This document shows positions 1,961 to 62,766 of a stretch of 64,000 nt of DNA, piece after piece. Below the pieces are notes generated by a model. That model was not told the DNA's origin. It saw nothing but the letters and a program-made list of their open reading frames with translations, and did no database searches. The first letter of the stretch is position 1. The number at the start of each line of letters is the position of its first letter. Origin of the DNA: Octopus vulgaris (taxonomy: Eukaryota). The stretch is taken from positions 81,282,001 to 81,346,000 of the forward strand of contig OX597820.1 of assembly GCA_951406725.2 (NCBI GenBank). The letters run 5' to 3'. The translations under genes were made by a program, and so were the position numbers.

Positions 1961-4171
1961 ATCTGGCCAATATGTGAATAACTCCCAGATTTTTCAGTAA
2001 TGATGTAGCCATATATTAGTCCAGTTAGATTTGTTGCGGAGTGTACTAAAAGAGACTAGATTTATAGAGAGAGACAAGTAGTCACAGGCAGAAGCAAATG
2101 ACAGAGAGGTAACTGACAGACAAGATAGAACAGAAAATGCAGTCATGTATTCCTGTCAGGTACTGCAGTTGATGAGCATGGACAGACCCATCAAATGGGA
2201 AGAATTTACAACACGAGTGACATGTTCCTGCTAGCATAAAGCTACATTATGGTCACTAACACTTTCATCCATTCCTTCATCTTCTCTTTCTCTCTCATCT
2301 ACACACTCATAAAAACTGTCCAAGTCACTACTATGAGCAGACATAACTGTGTTTTTATTTTCCTTTGCCCCCCACCCCCCAATATTTTGGGGATAATATG
2401 TATTATTGATTTGATAGAGCACTGAACAACTAATTAAGAGTTCAACAGTTAATGGCATGAAACTGGAATTGTGTTGAGTCAAATGTCAAAAACACTAATC
2501 ACACTCATATACACACAAACGTGTGTGTGTGTGTGTGTGTGTGTCCCCCAGTTTAACCCCAGTACAAACAGGATAGTAAAACCTCATCTATAACAAAGTG
2601 GCAGCACCATAAAAGACTTATTGAATTCAATCTTCAGTGTTTCCAAGAAAGCTACCTGACATAGATAAAAACTACAACAATTGTCTACACTAGATCCATA
2701 GAAGTTCCTGCTCTGTAGACAGTTATAGTAATCTTTAACTAGAATACTGTAAGAATGAGGAAGTAACATTTCAATCAAGTACAAGTTCATATGAGTTGTT
2801 CTATATGTAAGTATCCAGGGAAAGGTTCTAGTGTATGACTGTAAAGATAGGTATGTAAGCAATCTGAACATTTGGTATTTTATCAACAGTAAGAACTACA
2901 ATTTTAGTACTTTGTATTGTGTTTCATCATCTCCAGGGTGTTTATATTATTCACATTGAATTTTGTGCACTTGTTTTCTGACAATCAGAGAATCTTTTAA
3001 AGTTCATATTTATTAATTTTGATTTAAAGTTCCAAAGAAACACATTGCATATACATGCAACAATGGACTGAAAAAAAAAAAATCGAGCATGTAGATTTCT
3101 TTTATTTATTTATTTATTTATTGCATGTGGTGGTGTGATATATAATCAATGCCGTGACCTTTCATGAACAACTGTATAGTTCAGTGTTATTGACCTTTTC
3201 ACACAAAATGTACAACTCATTCTTAAACACTTAAGTGAATTGAAGAAATATAAAAAAGAAAAGTAAAAAAAAAAAAAAATAGAAAACTTGCACCAGATTT
3301 GAACTCATGAACTATGGGTCAATAGCTAATCTACTTGGCTATTTAGTAGGTACATATGTATATTTATGTATTATATATATCACAATTTGTGAACAATAAT
3401 ATCATTGTGACAGGTTTCTAGTAGGTTAATCAGTGGCTCAGTGCATTTTGACAGCAAGGGAGTGTTTGTAAATTACTGCAGAACAAATGACACATGACTT
3501 TGCTACAAAAGAAACCTCAATTTTTAGTTTCCTTGCAGATTTATATTGGCTATCTATCTGTCTGTCTGTCAGTCTGTCTATAAAAACACACATAGCTTTG
3601 ATCGCAGGGGCATCAGATAACCTAGGGGGTTAAACATTGTGTTTGTTTAATCCAACATATAACACAAACAATATATACACAATCACATATCTATATGTCT
3701 ATCCGTCCATTTATCTATCTATATGAAGAGATAGAGGGAGAGAGTCAAGTAGCTAAAAAACAAAAGAGACAGAAAGATAGATATATAAACATAGTAGCTA
3801 TATAGATATATAAACAGATCAAATAGATAAACAGATGGTAGACAGACAGTTAGCTAGTTAGACTGATAGACAGGCAGATACATAGACAGACAGATCATGT
3901 CACTCAACACATGTTCTGACATCTACATATCCATGTGCTGCCCACTCCAAGACTTTTATTGTCTAGCTACGAAGATAAATTTATTTAACTTGCCTATATA
4001 GCCATCCACCCATATAGCTATTCACAACTACATGCATGCATGCATGTATGTATGTATTTCTGCTCAGTTTCCATGAACCTAGTTCCATTCATTTGTCATT
4101 GGTGAACTCAAAGGTTAGTGGGATTGAACCCTGGATCAAGTGATTCTAAAGATACTTTATTAACCATCATA

Positions 4172-5428
4172 CGAGGGGGTGCTGAAGAGTTCCTAGCTTC
4201 AAGGGTATCATGAAAGGGTAGAGCTGTTACCTTTACAGGGGAGTTAGAACAACTATTTAGAAGAAGATGAGTAAAAAAAATCATGATGTTATATGTTTTT
4301 CCCCTTATTGCAGATTTAATGCATGATGACAGCTCCTACAAAGGATTTTGGTAGAACTGAAGCACAGGCAGATGAAGTTTCTCCTTTTGCAAGGCAATGG
4401 AACAGCAGAAATCCATGGTGAGATGAAGGAAGTTTTAAAGGATGGCTGCCTATCTTACTCTATAGTGAAAATCTGGGTGTTAAGGTTTCAGACTGGTCAT
4501 TTCAAGGTCAAAGATGAACCCCAGTCAGGATGGCCAACTTCTGCAACCACGAGGACAAAGCTGACACTGTGCATGTCATGATTCTTGAGGACTACTGGAT
4601 TTCAGATAAAGTTATAGCTGAGATTCTGGGGATTTCCCATAAAAAAATTGACCATATCATTCACAACATACTGGACACAAGAAAGTTTTCAGCAAAATGG
4701 GTGCCAAAATACCTGAATACAGATCAGAAGCACATCAAAGTGACAACATTAATGAAGATTTGTGACTGGTTTGCAGTAGAAGAGTCTGATTATATGGCTC
4801 ATTTAGTCCCCATAGATGAAACTTGGCTTCATCATTATGATCCCCAGACCAAGCAACAATCAATGGAGTGGTGCCACAGTGGTTCACTACATCCCAAGAC
4901 GTTTTGAACCCAGAAGTCAGCTGGCAAGATTCTGGCTTCAGTGTTCTGGGACAAAGACTGAGTACTCCCTATAAAATATCTGCCAAGTGTTGCACCACCA
5001 ATTTAGAATAGTACAGGTCTCTATTAGATGAACTGCATGAAGTTTTGAAGCAGAAATGCTGTGAATAGCTGAGCTTCTGCAGGACAATTCACCAGCACAC
5101 ACAGCATATGAAACTACAAAAAAATACACGATTTTGTCTTCAAATTTATAGACCACCCACTTGGCTTGATCTAACTATCACCCCTTTCCAAAACTAAAGA
5201 AACATCCCAAGGAAATTAAATTTCACTTTGATTCAGAAGTGATTGCTGCTATAGAGATCTGGTTGGAGGCCCAACCTTCTGAGTTCTTTTTACAAGGCTT
5301 AGAAAAACTGAAGGACTGCTGCAATAAGTGTGTGAATCTGAGAAGGGAATATGTTGAATAAAATCATAATTAACTGATCCTCTTGTATTTTCTTTTCTCA
5401 AAGCCAGCAACTATTCAGCATCCCCTTG
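4172..5428 (+). mobile_element. Full-length degenerate mariner (DD34D) transposon with frameshifted transposase
   Basis: 28-bp TIRs matching 23/28 (CGAGGGGGTGCTGAAGAGTTCCTAGCTT vs revcomp of 5401-5428). TA TSDs at 4170-71 and 5429-30. ORFs 4348-4581 and 4530-4907 carry an HTH region and the WVPKYL, DETW and YDPQTKQQSMEW motifs. Confidence 0.95.
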
Positions 5429-6219: not shown

Positions 6220-6605
6220 TCTTTATATATAAAAGAGAAGTTGTGTCTGTCTCCTACGATTTAGATTCCTAACTACTCCCACATTTTGCGGTGCAGTTTA
6301 ACCAAAACAGGGTATCTTATAGTTGTGATTCATATCGAGCCCTTCTGGGTATTAGGATGAGTCTACGATTTAAAAAAAAAATTACCATAATTTTTTTCCA
6401 TTTTAATGCATTTTCTTCGCTATTATATAAGGGAAGTAACTCTCTAAAAATGTCTACGATGAGTCAACGATTTATAAAAAATTTTACCATCATTTTTTTT
6501 CCATTTTTAATGCATTTTTTTGCTATTTTTTGGCTATAACTCTCTAAAAATGCTTATATAGTTATTTCCCTTACAAACCCGAGCAATGCCGGGCGATACT
6601 GCTAG
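6220..6605 (+). mobile_element. Non-autonomous Helitron, copy 1
   Basis: 5' TC, 3' CTAG, inserted in A|T with no TSD. Subterminal GC hairpin CCCGAGCAATGCCGGG. Internal partial tandem duplication. Near-identical copy at 13573-13973. Confidence 0.85.
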
Positions 6606-6749
6606 TTTATTATAGAACATTTCTTTGATATTTTAACAGATCTATCTATCTATAAATGTCTTATTTAATAAATCATATGGTATAGACCTGGTAGTTTAAT
6701 AGTAAAGCATGTTCACTTTCTCAGTGTTTGCTGGGTATTTGATTAACAA

Positions 6750-7050
6750 GATGGAAGATGGAAGATACGAGAATGTTTATTGATCACTACAATTGTTTCA
6801 ACCCATCTAACATTGATTATTCATGAGTGGGATACTGAAAGGAGTTCATAGCTATGGACTCTGTGTGGGCAGTCATCTAAGAGTTTTTGTTCATCTTGAT
6901 GCTGACATAAGTTCCTTGTCTTTCCTGATGAGAAGGCGGCATAATGCACCCCTTATTCCTTCGAAATTAGGAATATGCAGCCTTCGAAACATATGTCGAA
7001 AATAAAGGAATTTTGTTAAATCGTCGTTCAACTCCATTCTTTCATTTATT
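6750..7050 (+). mobile_element. ~300-bp hammerhead-bearing unit (Penelope pLTR or retrozyme-like)
   Basis: Hammerhead followed by AATAAA, the tail TCGTTCAACTCCATT and (TA)n. The 3' ~130 nt are homologous to 57215-57350. Confidence 0.65.
6921..7001 (+). ncRNA. Type I hammerhead ribozyme with enlarged stem II
   Basis: Stem I TTTC/GAAA; core CTGATGA 6925-31; stem II GAAGGC...GCCTTC (6932-6985); GAAA 6986-89; palindromic stem III ACATATGT; GUC cleavage triplet ending at 6997. Confidence 0.85.
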
Positions 7051-8559
7051 TATATATATATATATATTGTTAGTGCTGTCAAGAGGGAGTACTAATCTTT
7101 TAAACCATCAGTTGAAATGACATTGGGATCAACTTTCTTTTTTGCTTCTTCCACATTGATGAAATCAATGAGAATGCTATCAATCAAATATTATTAGCAC
7201 TGACATTTTGTGTTATAGTGGTTAATCATAAATTTTAAGGAATCATTAGAAAAACAAGTGTCCTGACCAAGACTCGGAGACAGTAAAAATCAAAAACATA
7301 TATATCTAAAAGAAAATTAAAATAATTAAGAGGAATTAGAACTAAATTAATAATTATTTAAAAAATATACCTAATTATTAAAGCAGTTCCCATTTCCCAG
7401 ATATTTGCAAGTTAAAGCTTGTAAAGCTTTAGAATGAAATAAACATGAAGATATTTAGAACTTTATAATAAATTGCAGCAGAATCAGTGCTGTAACTTAA
7501 GGCTATTATCATATTCTTTATTTACTCTAAGAGGCTAGAACTCCTGTACACACTTCTCTTTTCAACCATATGGTCTGCTTTCTCTTTCAATAATCTTCAC
7601 AAGACCACAGGCTTGCATTTGTTATTATTTCCAATATGTGTTTGTTATTGTACTGCTTCTCTCAATACTTTTCACTGCTACCAAGACAACTATTATTCAT
7701 TGCATGGTACACATTGCAAGAATTAATCTCAAACTATTTTATATGCTTAGAAAAATTGCCATCATTTACTATTAAGTAGAGCTCAGGCTGACAACAAAAA
7801 AGTGACACAACAGAAAGATTCTAGGACAGGGAAACAGTAAAATTTTGGATAAAATACCTCAAAGTATTTAGTTATGTTCCTTAACATTCAGAGATCAGAT
7901 CTAACCAGTAACAACTGTGATTTTCAATATTACAATTACCAGTAAGTTTGGGGTCCATCTAGTCATTGCCAACAAACATGTAACCTTCCACCAATTTAAG
8001 AAATCATTAACTACACTACTTTAATAAACAATTTTTCAATCTAGCACTAATTAGTTGGATTAAGAATATATCAAACTTTTTATTTTACATCATTCCACTT
8101 ATGTAAAAAGGAGCTTGTCTTAAATCTTAGTTCCCCTCTCCAAATAATTTTTGTTAATTTCCAATTTCTATATTGTAAACATAATTGCTCTCTACATCAT
8201 TACTTGTACAAATCAGGAAGCCAGTTCTTTGGGCAAAAAAATTAGTTTACATTATACTTTTCATTCATTAGAAAATAATTTATCAGTTGTTCCACCTTCA
8301 GCTCTAGCTGTGCCAACACTCATACAAAATTAATTAAAGGTGACACATCAAATACATGTACAAATAACAGATGTCTAAATGGCCTTTGTTAAGTTTATCA
8401 TCAAGATAAATTAAACATATTATCAATAATTACAAATCTGAAATGTAATTTAATTACATACTTATAAATGAAATTACTTATTATATATCCCTAATAATTA
8501 GTAGCACTAGCAAAGAACTGTAAATCTTATGATTACTTAAGAAAAGCTAGGCCTCTCTT

Positions 8560-11989: not shown

Positions 11990-12940
11990 CTAAGTTTTGA
12001 CATCATCTCCTTCAAAATGGTCACCTAGCACAGCAATATATCAGTCCCAGTGTTCCTGTCCCTTTTGTAATCTAGCCTGGAAGTCATTTTCTGTAAGCAA
12101 ACCAAGGACCTTCTGTGATTCATTCTGGACCTCAACAATGTTGTTAAAATGGGGGCCTTTAAGCTGCATTTTCATCTCATGGAAGAGATGGAAGGCCACA
12201 GATGCTAAATTTGACGAATAGAATGGGTGTAGAAGCAATACCATGTTGTTTTCGGTGAAGAACTCACAAGAGAGGAGAGCTCAGTGACATGGTGCATTGT
12301 CATCATCAAGAATCCAATTCTTCATGCTCCACAGATCCAGGTGCTTTCGCTGAATGTCCTTCCTCAAATGTTTCAAAATATTGCAGTAGATCTCTAAATT
12401 GACAGTCTGGTCCCAGGAGATGGATTTCCAGTGTAAAATACCTTGGATGTCGAAAAAAATGACAAGCATGCTCTTGATTGAGCTGCGTCTCTGTCATGCC
12501 TTCTTTGGTCATGGAGATGAAGGGTTCTTCCATTGTAATGACTGCTGCTTTGTCTCAGGGCCATACCCATAGACCCAACTCTCATCACCGGTGATAATCC
12601 TTGACATGAAGGATGGGTCATAAGTAGCATGCTGATGGAAATCTTGACAGACTTCAATGCAATGTTCTTTCTGCTCAGCGGTCAGCAGGTGGGGGACAAA
12701 CTTGGCAGAGACATTCTGCATGTTCACTTCAGACATTAGGATTGCCTGCATGGACCCATATGACAGACCAACAACATCAGCAATGTCGTTGATTGACCTC
12801 CTGCAACCCTCATGCACAAGCTGATGAATTTTCTCCACAGTTTTGGGGGTCAGGTTCGTGCTAGGTCTTTCAGATCACTCATTATCTTCCAGAGATGTTC
12901 TGCTTCTGAAGCACCTGTACCACTGAAAACATTGCTTACC
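11990..12940 (-). mobile_element. Mariner transposase relic, truncated
   Basis: Minus ORFs contain KFVPHLLT, IITGDESWVYGY.PETKQQS, WILDDDNAPCH and a degraded YSxDLAP motif; frameshifted. Same family as 22351-23210. Confidence 0.92.
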
Positions 12941-13572: not shown

Positions 13573-13973
13573 TCTTTATATATAAAAGTGAGGTTGTGTG
13601 CTGTCTGTCTCCTACGATTTAGATTCCTAACTACTCCCACATTTTGCGGTGCAGTGTAACCAAAAGCAGGTATCTTATAGTCGTGATTCATATCGAGCCC
13701 TTCTGGGTATTAGCGCGTGTCTATGATGAGTCTACGATTTTAAAAATAATTTACCATCATTTTTTTCCATTTTAATGCATTTTTTCGCTATTATATAAGG
13801 GAAGTAACTCTCTAAAAATGTCTACGATGAGTCAACGATTTAAAAAAAAATTTACCATAATTTTTTTTCCATTTTTGATACATTTTTTTGCTATTTTTTG
13901 GCTATAACTCTCTAAAAATGCTTATATAGTTATTTCCCTTACAAACCTGAGCAACGCCGGGCGATACTGCTAG
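13573..13973 (+). mobile_element. Non-autonomous Helitron, copy 2
   Basis: TC...CTAG termini in A|T, 3' hairpin CCTGAGCAACGCCGGG, near-identical to 6220-6605. Confidence 0.85.
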
Positions 13974-13984
13974 TATATATATAA

Positions 13985-48329: not shown

Positions 48330-49045
48330 GTCAAAGTTGACATGATAAGCCTAAACTATAGTGTTGTCTCAGCTTGGATAATTAATCTAACCTAATTTTA
48401 ATGTTTTGTCGCTCAGCTGATCTAATTAGTAAAATATAGCTCTGGTCTCTTGCTGCTCAGCTAATCTAATAAATCAAACATAAGTTTAGTGTTCTGTCTC
48501 TCAACTAAACTAATTAATGATAGTGTTCTGCTACTCAGTTCATCCAATTAAACAGGTAGCATCCTGTCCCACAACTAAATTAATTAATGGAATGTAACTT
48601 TAGTGTTCTGCAACAGCTTACTAATTAGTCTAACAAAACTATACTGTTCTGTCACTCAGCTAACAACTGAGCTAATTAATCAAACAACTTAAGAGTTCTA
48701 CAACTCAGTTAATGTAATTAATTTAACTCAGCAAATCTAATTATGTATCCTAATTTTAGTGTTCTGTCCATCAGGTAACATAATTAGCTAACAACTTTAT
48801 TCTTCTGTGACTCAACTATCCTAATTTATCAAACAACTTCAGTTTTCTGTCATTCAGCTAACCCAATTTATCTAAGTGTTCCATCATTCAACTAGCCTCA
48901 TTAACTATACTGTTCTGGTACTTAACTAACCAAATTAGTCTAACATAAATTTGGTGTTCTGTCTAATATACTTCAGTATTCTATCACTCAGTTAGTCTAA
49001 AATTAGTCTAAAATAATTTTATTATTCTCTCACACAACTAACCAA
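48330..49045. repeat. Degenerate minisatellite, unit ~35-45 bp
   Basis: Recurrent tagtgttctgtcactcagctaatctaatta motif. Confidence 0.8.
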
Positions 49046-54998: not shown

Positions 54999-55333
54999 AA
55001 ACATATATTAGGTTGTACAGAAAACAGATTCTATCACATGCCAGGGGAAGAAACTAACAGCATTGAGAACCTGGAAACATCACATTTATTGCACCAATTA
55101 TGAGTTGCTCATGTTTCTTTGTTGCCATCTGGTTGTTAATATTATTTAACTCCAAGTCATCCTCCATCCAGCAGGCCTGAAATCATGGATATTCCAACCA
55201 TGACCACCCCACTTTAAGATATCCAGCACTACATCATTCAGCAACATCTCCTTTGTTAGATTATACAGTGCAACCTAGCATGTTAAGTGACAATATAGAG
55301 GTTTCTAGCATTAGCTTGTTGCTACCTGGCAGC

Positions 55334-55777
55334 TGCTAGAGTCACATCTGGTTTCTGCTAGAGTCACATCTGGCTTCTGCTAGAGTCACATCTGGTTGCT
55401 GCTAGAGTCACATCTGGTTGCTGCTAGAGTCACAGCTGGTTGACGCTAGAGTTACAGCTGGTCGATGCTAGAGTTACAGCTGGTCGATGCTAGAGTTACA
55501 GCTGGTAGATGCTAGAGCCACAGCTGGTCAATGCTAGAGTCACAGCTGGTTGATGCTAGAGTCACAGCTGGTTGATGCTAGAGTCACAGCTAGTTGATAC
55601 TAGACTTACATCTGGTCAATGCTAGACTTACATCTGGTCGATGTTAGACTTACATCTGGTTGCTGCTAGAGTTACATCTGGTTACTGCAAGAGTCACATC
55701 TAGTAGCTGCAAGAGTCACATCTAGAAGCTGCAAGAGTCACATCTAGAAGCTGCAAGAGTCACATCTGGTAGCTGCC
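55334..55777. repeat. 22-bp minisatellite, about 20 copies
   Basis: Unit TGCTAGAGTCACATCTGGTTGC with positional variants. Confidence 0.97.
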
Positions 55778-56965: not shown

Positions 56966-57072
56966 TATACACACACATTTCATTACATACATGAATATAT
57001 ATCTGTGTGTTTGTGTGTGTGCATGTGTGTAATAATCTATCTATCTATCTATATATATATATATGTATATAT

Positions 57073-57356
57073 TGTGAAATAGAAAGATGAATAATCTTGT
57101 TGCAGATTAATCAAAAGTTTAATCAAGAGTTTGGCCATGGGCTCTTAGGAGCCTCGTTCGATTTGTCTTGCTCCGCCTCTGTTCTGTTTTTGTTTTTTTC
57201 CAACGGATTTCCTATTTCTTCCTGAAGAGAAAGACACAATATGGTCTCCTTATTCAATCGGAATTTGGTAAATTGTGCCTTTCGAAACACGTGTAGAATG
57301 CAATAAAACGATTTCTGTTCAATCTTCGTTCAACTCCATTTCTTCAATTCACTAAT
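57073..57356 (+). mobile_element. ~285-bp hammerhead-bearing unit inside a (TA)n tract
   Basis: Bounded by (TA)n on both sides. Hammerhead, AATAAA and TCGTTCAACTCCATT tail are shared with 6750-7050. Confidence 0.7.
57219..57298 (+). ncRNA. Type I hammerhead ribozyme with enlarged stem II
   Basis: Stem I TTC/GAA; core CTGAAGA 57222-28; stem II GAAAGaCACAAT...ATTGTGcCTTTC; GAAA 57284-87; palindromic stem III ACACGTGT; GUA triplet ending at 57295. Confidence 0.85.
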
Positions 57357-57564
57357 AATATATATATATATATATATAGAAACATATATATACACACACA
57401 TAAATCAGAAAATGTATATATATATTCACACGCTCACAAACACAAATCTATACATGCATTTATGCACACTGGCTCAGTATACATTTACATAAATACAAGC
57501 TACTTTGAATAAAACAGTGTTACGTCTTCAGAAGTGTGTTGTTGGCTCTATTTTGTTGAGGCCT

Positions 57565-58236
57565 CCACCTCAGTTGTGGACAGCTAAGTATTTTCTTATT
57601 TTTCTTTCTAGTTATGATTCTATCTATGTAAGATCTGGACGACCCGTCGTTTCTTGCCCAGGTCCACGCTGGAGTGTCTGGGTGGTCCAGTCTGAATCGA
57701 TCTGCCAACTCGAAACGACTTAGCAGATCGTTGAGGTGAGGTAATCCCCTCCTATTCTTTCTCGAGCCAACATAATCTATGCATGCATCGCAAATTATGT
57801 TGAAGTCACCTAGCAGTACTACGTGTTCGACGTGCCAAGAAAATTCTCTAGGCTTTTGAAATAATATTTCTGTTGGGCATTTCCTTCGCAGGGAGCATAG
57901 ACAGCGACCAGCCTGAACACTTTACCACTGCTATGTGTCACATCCAAAACGACTAACCTGCCTTCCGGATCTATAAAGACAGTTCTAATCTCTAAATCCA
58001 GGTTTTTTCTGACCAGCACTGCCACTCCTCCGCCCCCTCCAGGTTGACAGGGAGAAACGTATTTCTCGTAGCTGTTTAGCAAGGGTGAAAAAGCCTGCAG
58101 CCCACTCAGTCTGGATTCGGTAATTACAACTACATCCAAACGATGCGACCCAAGGTCGTTAAGGAGGTAGCCTTGCTTCCAATATGACCCCAGGTCGCGA
58201 ATATTTAAACAACCGGGTTTAAACGAGAATGTGAAA
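57565..58236 (-). pseudogene. ORF2 apurinic-like endonuclease domain, disrupted and truncated
   Basis: Motifs CLNIRDL, DVVVITES, GGGVAVL, DPEGRLV, VAVYAP, LLGDFN and SYIDR. In-frame stop at 57819-21 plus a frameshift. Ends before the SDH motif. Confidence 0.9.
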
Positions 58237-58257
58237 AATCAGTCGAATGTTTAAAAC

Positions 58258-59758
58258 TTACTGTTTTAATGGGAGAGAGGGTGTAGTTTCACCCTCCTCT
58301 TTTTTGTTTGCGAGATCATTTTTTTTTGCGAATTGCCTGTATAGATGGCTTGAAAAGTTAATCTGTAACGGGCCAACGTCCTCCGAAAAAGATTTTTTTA
58401 GTTCAAAATAGTCAGAGTTACCTATAGTATAAAATTTGACATTTTCAAGAATAGTATTATTTACATCTGTTGAGATATATTTTTTCGCCGATTTCATTAA
58501 AACAATTTTGTCTCTTAATAGTTTATAATTTTTGTTTATTGCCGTGAAGGTGTTTCTCTTTTTTATATTAGGCGATTGTGGAGGGGGGGTGCTTGTTGGT
58601 GTGTGTATGCTTGTAGAAGCGTGGGTGTTTGTAGGTGTATGTGTGTGTGTTTGTGTGTGCTTTTTACAGTGTGTGTGTTTTTTTGGCTACGTGTGTGTTT
58701 GCGACTGTATTTGTGGGTGTGGGTGTGCTTGTCTGTCTCGGAGCATAGTCCTGTGTATCCGAAGAAGGTGGGTTTTTCCGTTTCCGTCTTCTTTTTGAAG
58801 GTTCCACGGTGACCCACTCCTGGATGTTGTTGTTGTTTTCTCCCGCTGTCGGCTGTACTTCGGCAATTGGGGTGAGTGACGTGGCTGCTATTTGTAGCGG
58901 TGTGGTCATTGTCTTTGGCGGCGTGCTTGCCTCTTCTGCTGCGTTTTCTTTGGCTGTCTTCTTACAGCTCGACCTTATGTGGCCTTTCTTGCCACATTTG
59001 TAACATCTGGGCTTTCTCCCCTCAACTACCACCATCATGCTGGTATTTTCTCCAATTGTAAGGGAACTGGACAATGTTTCTAAGTCTGAGGGGTTTGCTT
59101 GGATGACAAGCTCTAAATCTTGTCCAAACCAGTTCATGTGGTGGTATCTCTTAGATTGAAGAATTGAAATTTCTTCTTCTTTCCCTACGAGAATAGCGGC
59201 TATGACAAAGGCCACATCTATTTCGGGTGGTGTATCCATGACTGTGATTTTTGAAGTTCTCTTTCCGAAGTAAGTCGGCTGGAGAACTACTTCTTCCGAC
59301 TTTAATGTCAATGTTGAATGTTCCCTAGCTTTTTCTTCGCTAGGGAAACACACCTCTACAGTGTCGAAGCGACTACCCCTCGTTATGTAACTTGTTTGTT
59401 GCCATATCAGCCTCAAGCATTTTTCTATGGCTTCCCTCGGTACAAAGTCGATTTTTTTATTTTTGACATTATATGTTTTATATATTACCGTCTTTCTCTC
59501 CATAACGTAAATTAATTCACTGGGAGGGAGCAACTTCACATTATCACCTTCTTTGTTTAGTAAACCTAGGTATTTCTTTAATTCTTCTTTGTTAATAGCT
59601 ATATTTTCGCAGGGGCGAGTTGCTGCACTTGCAAAATTTATTTTTGACTTTTCCTGTTGTGTAGTAGCTTCTCTAGACATCTTGTCGTCTGCTTTTGTAA
59701 CGCGCGCGTGAGACGCCTCTTTACTTTTACCTTCCTCCTCCCACCTATTCGCCTTCAT
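58258..59758 (-). pseudogene. LINE ORF1 gag-like nucleic-acid-binding protein, frameshifted
   Basis: ATG at 59758, CYKCGKKGHIRSSC zinc knuckle, basic NLS-like KRRRKRK. The frame is lost in an (AC)-rich linker at ~58600-58700 and resumes to a stop at 58258. Confidence 0.85.
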
Positions 59759-59975
59759 GCCTTCAAACAAATTTTCAGTTTTCCTCCGACTCGGAAGAAA
59801 TTGGTGGCAAATTCATATTTTTCGTCGCTTCCCCCTTGAAACAAGCGGGAAATAATAGCAAAACTCTGCTGCAACAGCAGAAAAGAAGTGGTCTCGACGA
59901 CCAAAACAGCAAATTTTCAAAATTTTCAGCACAAAAACAATATTTCACTGCGGAGCAAAGAATAACACGACCGAT

Positions 59976-61279: not shown

Positions 61280-62766
61280 TGAGAGAGAGTTAGTTTAGAT
61301 GAGATGCAGTTTGGGTTCGTGCCAGGGAAAAGTACCACTGATGCTATATTCCTGGTAAGGCAGCTGTAGGAGAAATACCTAGCCAAAGATAAGCCCCTGT
61401 ACCTGGCTTTTGTTGACATGGAGAAAGCCTTCGACAGGGTCCCCCGATCCCTTATCTGGTGGTCAATGAGGAAACTAGGGATAGATGAATGGTTAGTGAG
61501 AGCTGTGCGAGCCATGTACAGGGATGCTGCTAGTAAGGTGAGGGTTGGCAACGAGTACAATGAAGAATTCCGGGTAGAGGTAGGGGTCTACCAAGGCTCA
61601 GTCCTCAGCCCCCTCCTATTTATCATAGTCCTCCAGGCAATAATGCAGGAATTCAAGACAGAATGCCCCTGGGAGCTCCTCTATGCTGATGACCTTGCTC
61701 TAATTGCTGAGTCACTATTAGAACTGGAGGAGAAGTTTCAGGTGTGGAAGCAAGGATTAGAATCGAAGGGCCTTAGAGTCAATCTAGCTAAAACCAAAGT
61801 CCTAATAAGTAGGAAGGTAGACAAATCACAAACGCATTCAGGTAGATGGCCCTGCTCGATCTGTAGAAAATGTGCAGGTAGAAACTCTATAAGATGCACC
61901 AAGTGTAAGCTATGGTCACATAAGAGGTGCAGCAATGTCAAAGGAAGGCTAACTAGGAAGATAGTCTTTGTATGTGGCAGATGCTCAGGAGCAATAAACA
62001 CTGAAAATGATCCGAGACCAACTTCTGCCACATTCCAGGGAGAAAAACTAGAAATAGTTGATAGCTTCTGTTACCTAAGTGACCAAGTCAGTAGCGGGGG
62101 CGGGTGTGCTGAAAGTGTAACTACTAGAATAAGAATAGCTTGGGCAAAGTTCAGAGAGCTCTTACCTCTGCTGGTGACAAAAGGCCTCTCGCTCAGAGTA
62201 AAAAGCAGACTGTATGACGTGTGTGTACGAACAGCCATGCTACATGGCAGTGAAACATGGGCCGTGACTGCTGAGGATATGCGTAAGCTCGCAAGAAATG
62301 AAGCCAGTATGCTCTGATGGATGTGTAATGTCAGTGTTCATACTCGACAGTTCATACCTTGAGAGAAAAGCTGGACCTAAGAAGCATCAGTTGTGGTGTG
62401 CAAGAGAGACGTTTGCACTGGTATGGTCATGTGGCGAGAATGGATGAAGATAGTTGTGTGAAAAAGTGCCACACCCTAGCGGTTTAGGGAACCTGTGGAA
62501 GAGGCAGACCCAGGAAAACCTGGGACGAGGTGGTGAAGCCGTTTACCAGACTCGTCTGGCACCTGTGCCGGTGGCACGTAAAAAGCACCCACTACACTCA
62601 CGGAGTGGTTGGCGTTAGGAAGGGCATCCAGCCATAGAAACATTGTCAGATCAGACTGGGCCTGGTGCAGCCTTCTGGCTTCCCAGACCCCAGTTGAATC
62701 GTCCAACCCATGCTAGCATGGAAAGTGGACGCTAAACGATGATGATGATGATGATGGTGATGATGA
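61280..62766 (+). mobile_element. 5'-truncated RTE-clade LINE with (GAT)n tail
   Basis: Motifs QFGF..STTDAIF, FVDMEKAFD, QGSVLSPLLF, LYADD, HGSETW, LHWYGHVARM and GRGRPRKTW, then a 3' UTR ending in (GAT)n. Confidence 0.95.
61418..62317 (+). pseudogene. RTE reverse transcriptase fragment with inserted PHD-like zinc finger
   Basis: 299-aa ORF with YADD, bounded by premature stops. C4HC3 motif at 61853-61984. Confidence 0.9.

Follow-up and report, generated by a model that had tools for sequence, protein, structure and literature searches.

Two hammerhead-bearing repeat families, probably Penelope-like, lie head to head at a locus of Octopus vulgaris

The repeat unit examined here, for which a ribozyme on each strand had been suggested, is a composite of two different hammerhead-bearing repeat families, L and R, joined head to head, probably by two successive insertions of the Penelope type, L first and R second. 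Both families are likely to be pLTRs of Penelope-like retrotransposons (PLEs), an assignment based on RNA anatomy and on the pattern of insertion. The preliminary description of this DNA had offered two readings of the unit, a bidirectional, ambisense ribozyme cassette reminiscent of viroid-like RNAs, or two inverted pLTRs as in Penelope insertions. The second reading stands as far as the opposite orientation of the two arms is concerned, and falls where it would make them one element and its inverted copy, since L and R share no significant similarity.

Methods

The window, by which we mean the whole 64-kb stretch of DNA analyzed, is AT-rich animal-type DNA, rich in microsatellites and dispersed repeats, with LINE fragments. 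Both of its strands were scanned with a descriptor modelled on the sense ribozymes, consisting of GAAA, a perfect 6-nt palindrome, UH and a polyA signal A(A/T)TAAA within 18 nt, and 200 block shuffles served as the control.

Copies were compared by aligning the contigs of four public runs (X1, X4, X14 and X10, with 2571, 2172, 853 and 84 aligned contigs, respectively) to positions 6615-7214 at an 80% likeness cut-off. Altogether 24 runs under five organism labels were available, 20 of which contain part of 6620-7700, and four were used. X1, X4 and X14, with organism labels A, B and E, are probably DNA runs, and X10 is RNA by guess only. All runs consist of contigs and show neither strand nor RNA ends, X10 being silent on both strand and expression. 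The comparison as listed covers 40 of 97 letter rows, 15 of 17 joints, 24 of 512 loose-end rows and 32 of 5767 contig pieces, and 30 letters are visible beyond each alignment break at a loose end. L, R and the flank have very different summed contig depths; these are not copy numbers and served only to place boundaries.

Results

The first unit of the window (unit 1) contains the following features.

6640 to 6653, (ATCT)n run at the left end, which is the 3' end of L
6655 to 6839, minus strand, family L fragment, the 3' end of a hammerhead-bearing repeat with its 5' side cut off inside stem II (from contig alignments)
6661 to 6735, minus strand, optional 3' extension of family L, found only in some copies (loose ends before 6749/6754, 46-99 contigs per row)
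6842 to 6861, 20-nt near-perfect palindrome at the L/R junction (self-inverted match, 90%)
6851 to 7047, plus strand, family R copy with leader, intact hammerhead and AT-rich 3' end (contig pieces 6851-6966, 6865-6999 and 6866-6950)
7051 to 7067, (TA)n at the right end, which is the 3' end of R

The two families meet at about 6840-6850. Within unit 1 the listed contig pieces form two groups, one at 6615-6839 and one at 6851-7020; the stretch 6839-6851 is not crossed by any of the 32 pieces listed (of 5767), although rare copies with L joined to R may exist among the others. Seven listed pieces reach 6835-6839 from the left, and four of the five on the plus strand continue with another 54-143 letters that do not match; from the other side, piece 13 begins at 6851 with 58 unfitted letters ahead of it. 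In X14 the bins 6855-6874 and 6955-6974 are without cover, L is covered and one piece spans 6615-6800, a coverage hole that would agree with an older L and in itself proves nothing. We regard L and R as two families because each has other neighbours elsewhere in the contig rows listed, where the preliminary description had allowed for a single unit whose left and right halves belong together. Neither a microsatellite remnant nor a target duplication is seen at the junction.

L and R of unit 1 share no significant similarity (989 of 1000 shuffles, and in further comparisons 436 and 1861 of 2000, score as well), and each family matches its own relatives at about 80-98%. L does align weakly with the 3' end of the second unit (unit 2), with 19 of 2000 shuffles scoring as well in a global and 52 of 2000 in a local alignment. 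Among the 40 of 97 letter rows listed at the 80% likeness cut-off, X1 outvotes the window letter by a single other letter at 10 positions of L versus 2 of R, hinting that the L copy of unit 1 is older than the R copy.

Many contigs of all four runs align within the L fragment (6652-6839). Behind 6817 lie loose ends of 55 (X1), 67 (X4), 59 (X14) and 3 (X10) contigs among the 24 of 512 loose-end rows listed, and the loose ends behind 6808-6817 keep the register of the window as far as about 6839, after which they are unlike the right half. L stem II would be an extended one of about 49 nt with an R-like inner hairpin, as the last loose letters can pair with the strand before GAAA, and the L core would be expected about 10-16 nt beyond the break, just past the visible loose letters. 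At the other end, many L copies stop near 6735-6749 in AT-rich or (TA)n sequence and some reach about 6661; a variant at 6731 is carried by some 40 contigs in each DNA run. None of the three reading frames of the L 3' end and its extension is free of stops. The 15 joints listed (of 17) all fall within 6688-6839, none being listed for R, and 10 of the 15 change strand and connect L with L, as expected for PLE inverted copies of L. In five listed joints within 6688-6776, 34-81 nt are missing between the extension of L and its body, which suggests that the 3' end of L varies in length.

Both units contain a sense hammerhead without any deviation in its core and with a palindromic stem III.

6921 to 7001, plus strand, canonical type I hammerhead of unit 1 (CTGATGA 6925-6931, GAAA 6986, palindrome CATATG, GUC site 6997)
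57128 to 57357, plus strand, unit 2, a diverged R-type copy with a canonical hammerhead, flanked by (TA)n runs

In unit 1 the ribozyme has a 4-bp stem I, a 6-bp stem II around a 54-nt span and C at 11.1; in unit 2 (CTGAAGA 57222-57228, GAAA 57284, palindrome CACGTG, GUA site 57295) stem I has 3 bp and stem II 5 bp around 55 nt, again with C at 11.1. The stretch from 6922 to 7067 is 73.5% identical to 57219-57373 over 155 nt (E 4e-19), and in both units the ribozyme is followed by an AT-rich end and then (TA)n. Family R is a dispersed repeat of about 200 nt, its two copies lying 50 kb apart with a common, defined 3' end. Its leader is pyrimidine-rich; the leaders of the two units share no significant similarity (396 of 2000 shuffles score as well locally, 140 of 2000 globally), and we infer their homology from where they lie and from letters that two X10 loose ends have in common with each of them. 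No tandem array covers either unit among 40 rows of the repeat listing.

The palindromes of the GAAA arms can self-pair in all three arms (-8.4, -12.3 and -8.4 kcal/mol, the antisense arm at -8.4), which in the folding model is in line with cleavage as dimers. A stem II region of 49-55 nt with an inner hairpin and similar letters (ATYC...GRAT) is seen at 6932-6985 and 57229-57283, and by inference at 6800-6839. To judge from the letters, the inner hairpin may be a structural element shared by related families, as this similarity suggests.

No further copy of L or R was found elsewhere in the 64-kb window, and two stretches with weak matches to the 3' ends (3097-3121 and 3234-3249) contain no hammerhead when read. 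Pattern scans gave 0 matches for family R in metagenomes and 0 each for family L in metagenomes, prokaryote genomes and viral contigs, as expected of animal repeats. An Rfam search (42 matches to E 5) returned no hammerhead family and missed both intact sense ribozymes as well, which makes it uninformative.

On the minus strand of unit 1, three features bear on the antisense ribozyme that had been proposed there.

6776 to 6787, minus strand, 3' strand of stem I (GTGATC) and AATAAA
6788 to 6805, minus strand, 3' half of a type I hammerhead, with the 3' strand of stem II (6805-6800), GAAA, the palindromic CAATTG and a GUA site
6873 to 6879, minus strand, TAGATGA, the core proposed earlier, which is no hammerhead core and lies antisense within the R leader

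Every letter quoted for this motif was found in its place: CTC at 6883-6881, TTAGATGA at 6880-6873, GCCCA at 6870-6866 and TGGGT at 6805-6801, followed by GAAA (6799-6796), CAATTG (6795-6790), TA (6789-6788), GTG (6787-6785) and AATAAA (6781-6776). The descriptor matches three sites in the 64-kb window, at 6986 and 57284 on the plus strand (both sense hammerheads) and at 6799 on the minus strand. In block shuffles the mean is 0.125 per window, 11.5% of the 200 shuffles have at least one match, and for a distance of up to 300 nt from a given site the expectation is about 3e-4 matches. We take the antisense 3' arm to be real because three sites stand against 0.125 per shuffled window, so that the antisense palindromic stem III arm, the GUA site and the polyA signal of its own are borne out beyond chance. 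This L copy has T at position 11.1, where most other copies have C: an A>G change at 6800, seen in 107-112 contigs per DNA run (54-61% of depth), restores, on the minus strand, the conserved C that precedes GAAA.

The 5' half of the drawing, the core, does not hold up. TAGATGA breaks C3 and U4 and leaves one contiguous stem I pair, and a hammerhead built on it would have T instead of C at 11.1 and would need offsets to reach five stem II pairs; when the arm was kept and the sequence ahead of it shuffled, 25.6% of 3000 shuffles yielded a core and stem as good. A nearer candidate, which the earlier reading had missed, is CTCATGA (6827-6821, minus strand), the sole core within one mismatch upstream of the antisense arm. 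It breaks G5, which like C3 is essential to the hammerhead, and 14.9% of shuffles give a match as good. No core without a mismatch lies in the 100 nt upstream of the arm. Nor do other copies restore CUGANGA at either candidate position in the contig rows listed: 6827-6821 reads CCCGTGA (X1, X4 and X14) or CCTGTGA (X10), the loop of the inner hairpin, and 6879-6873 reads TAGCTGA in two X10 contigs. A G>A change at 6881 (62, 58 and 8 contigs) abolishes the proposed antisense strand of stem I. In a PLE hammerhead, a single mutation of C3 or of G8 abolishes cleavage (PMC11167929). The predicted fold of the minus strand is not hammerhead-shaped and is no more stable than those of shuffles (z 0.08).

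From its letters, then, the antisense ribozyme of unit 1 is predicted to be dead, its CUGANGA half missing. The proposed core and the 5' strand of the proposed stem II sit in the R leader, and the 3' arm sits in L; the ribozyme as drawn is a chance "core" of family R put together with the true 3' arm of family L. At most, we speculate, a complete L ribozyme might cleave the arm in trans.

A weaker antisense echo had also been reported for unit 2.

57117 to 57165, minus strand, the "echo" of unit 2, a 5-bp hairpin (57140-57153) with neither GAAA nor a usable core

Below 57200 the minus strand lacks GAAA, and nowhere in 57060-57290 is there a core within one mismatch of CTGANGA. Its hairpin corresponds by position to 6857-6870 in the R leader and is likely the leader hairpin of the sense element. 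One result leans towards the earlier reading: a loose descriptor, fitted afterwards to the echo with G12 dropped, matches nothing in the window but the echo, and matches in 7 of 100 shuffled windows. To the left of the sense copy, the minus strand of 57072-57127 resembles an outward-pointing retroelement 3' end, with ATTAAA, a pyrimidine tract and (TA)n; its similarity to the 3' ends of L or R is not significant (231-1951 of 2000 shuffles score as well).

Discussion

How could two different repeats come to lie head to head? In the sequence of events that we consider probable, a PLE endonuclease/reverse transcriptase would nick AT-rich or microsatellite DNA and reverse-transcribe from near the RNA 3' end, which would place that end (hammerhead arm, AATAAA and optional tail) at the microsatellite and leave the 5' end truncated. 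Family L would have inserted first, pointing left. Later a copy of R would have inserted into the L remnant or right at it, in rightward orientation and with (TA)n at its 3' end, and would have left a small fold-back palindrome at its own 5' junction, the L core having been lost through truncation or deletion there. In active elements the ribozymes with their palindromic stem III would cleave as dimers.

Several published features of PLEs fit such a history, among them AT-rich targets and an internal start of reverse transcription (PMC11167929), palindromes at PLE 5' junctions (PMC3846280), a tendency to insert into or beside older PLE copies (PMC6765202) and the insertion of Pen2a into Pen3 in opposite orientation (PMC3846280). 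The outer ends of both units lie at simple repeats, (ATCT)n and (TA)n for unit 1 and (TA)n on both sides for unit 2, and the loose ends of other copies are AT-rich. Against two successive insertions stand the lack of target DNA at the seam and of any recognizable L remainder to the right of (TA)n (7079-7214 has one long contig per DNA run among the pieces listed), unless these were deleted, and the left piece of unit 2, which also resembles an outward-pointing 3' end. Against the pLTR assignment, the L extension of about 75 nt exceeds the published tails of 30-40 nt; as to PLE identity, no RT/GIY-YIG ORF is linked to L or R among the six window ORFs scanned.

In the accessible text of PMC4209133, PLE hammerheads have a short stem I (3-4 bp), a long stem II and a palindromic stem III, occur mostly as solitary truncated copies, and in Schistosoma mansoni form dual minimal hammerheads on opposite strands, 100-700 bp apart. 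The octopus ribozymes share the type I topology, the short stem I, the long stem II, a palindromic stem III suited to dimers and the pairing on opposite strands. They differ from what is described there in a stem II that spans 54-55 nt with an inner hairpin, in a 6-nt stem III palindrome between GAAA and UH, in an opposite-strand partner that comes from another family and has no core, and in the absence of an attached PLE ORF. Likewise, EN+ PLEs are described with inverted 5'-truncated copies, tails, junction palindromes and simple-repeat targets (PMC8557442, PMC3846280). Unit 1 is like their head-to-head pLTRs in its outward 3' ends, 5' truncation, junction palindrome, optional 3' extension and simple-repeat targets, and family L, like those elements, forms self-inverted joints at other loci. 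Unlike the units in the portions of these papers available to us, the arms of unit 1 are not copies of one another, the extension is about 75 instead of 30-40 nt and no target duplication is visible.

An unlikely alternative is that unit 1 arose in one step from two templates, a dimeric PLE protein having primed on both nicked strands of a microsatellite, with L RNA on one and R RNA on the other, and the two cDNAs having been joined at their truncated 5' ends. In its support, simple repeats lie beyond both outward-facing 3' ends, and the sequence between the ends shows no target DNA; in vitro, the PLE protein of Anolis cuts both strands and extends them, and it has been modelled as a dimer (PMC11167929). 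Unit 2 is laid out in a similar way, and its left piece bears on the idea. Yet, compared with R, this L copy seems to differ more from the majority of its family (10 versus 2 positions among the rows listed), the left piece of unit 2 lacks significant similarity to the 3' ends of L or R, and the inverted joints listed are all of L with L. Its general form is a little harder to believe: PLE RNPs would load two family RNAs per insertion and weld them 5' to 5', so that chimeras such as unit 1, and perhaps unit 2, would record cross-family twin priming and would account for the formation of inverted PLE structures.

We are more doubtful still that L and R are non-autonomous derivatives, either dispersed retrozyme monomers or hammerhead-bearing SINE-like elements, mobilized by PLE enzymes and neighbours at this junction by chance. 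The short, dispersed R with its defined common 3' end in two copies 50 kb apart would suit such elements, as would the absence of a PLE ORF among the six window ORFs scanned, and animal retrozyme monomers have been described as PLE derivatives (bioRxiv 10.64898/2026.07.22.740005). L and R resemble animal non-LTR retrozymes in having a non-coding unit of about 200 nt, a type I hammerhead, low GC, dispersed monomers and a relationship to PLEs (PMC7229834; bioRxiv 10.64898/2026.07.22.740005). Retrozymes as defined in the accessible parts of these sources are tandem, whereas neither unit here is arranged in tandem; moreover, the optional extension and inverted joints of L are features of full PLE insertions.

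The ambisense viroid-like cassette, a single unit with a ribozyme on each strand and RNAs of both polarities, is very improbable and is largely refuted by the contig comparison, in which the listed copies gain no antisense core at either candidate position and the two halves occur apart. In its favour, a true 3' arm with palindrome and polyA signal does lie opposite an intact hammerhead about 190 nt away, the fitted echo descriptor gives its one window match in unit 2, and the plus strand of unit 1, treated as a circle, folds somewhat better than shuffles (z -2.24). But a canonical antisense core is missing from this copy and from the two candidate positions in the other copies listed, L and R have other neighbours in the contig rows listed, unit 2 lacks an antisense GAAA arm, and neither unit is arrayed in tandem; the circular folds as a set are branched, with 4-7 hairpin loops, 47-69% pairing and z values between -2.24 and +0.85. 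Avsunviroidae viroids and HDV-like circular RNAs are replicating circles with complete ribozymes in both polarities, of type III in the HDV-like cases, according to the available text of PMC6765202 and PMC7936874. Unit 1 resembles them only superficially, in having hammerhead sequence on both strands; it is genomic DNA with one complete type I ribozyme and half of another, derived from two unrelated repeats.

The remaining possibility, one pLTR facing its own inverted, 5'-truncated and since decayed copy, has the head-to-head geometry of PMC8557442 and PMC3846280 and the weak alignment of L with the unit 2 3' end to its credit, and is nonetheless ruled out by the separate L and R families in the contigs, L and R being not detectably similar, their palindromes different (CAATTG and CATATG) and each half too close to its own relatives for decay to explain the difference.

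On the reading of two successive insertions, the locus adds two hammerhead-bearing repeat families, likely of Penelope type, with an unusually long stem II. It is also a warning that two abutting repeats can be misread as one ribozyme spanning their seam. Should the one-step, two-template variant prove true at many loci, it would bear on the origin of PLE head-to-head inversions, for which self-priming on an antisense template and priming on both target strands are rival explanations. A study of an octopus lists 31 recently active Penelope-like families, and in the accessible part of its text the word "ribozyme" is absent (PMC13282606). We found no published description of families L or R or of one-step two-family chimeras in an incomplete search of the literature, and supplementary consensus libraries may contain the families.

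Surrounding sequence

A repeat present in two copies, 6361-6607 and 13731-13977, about 89% identical, ends in a GC-rich hairpin, CTAG and then T, which we take to be a Helitron-like 3' end; the first copy stops about 50 nt to the left of unit 1. About 160 nt to the right of unit 2 lies the 5' part of a LINE (57520-59812, minus strand), with a zinc-knuckle ORF and apurinic-endonuclease fragments, and further on a reverse transcriptase fragment (61370-62317; RVT_1, E 1e-21) precedes a weak match to a PHD finger that falls short of the Pfam cut-off. No tRNA gene was found in the 64-kb window, and a GIY-YIG domain is absent from the six ORFs scanned of the 18 long ORFs listed. The ORFs at 4518-4907 and 12509-12874 resemble fragments of a mariner-type transposase by eye and have no Pfam match at E 0.001. 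Two repeat arrays complete the set, a 22-nt minisatellite of about 20 copies at 55332-55776 and a loose array of 42-44 nt repeats at 48379-49042.
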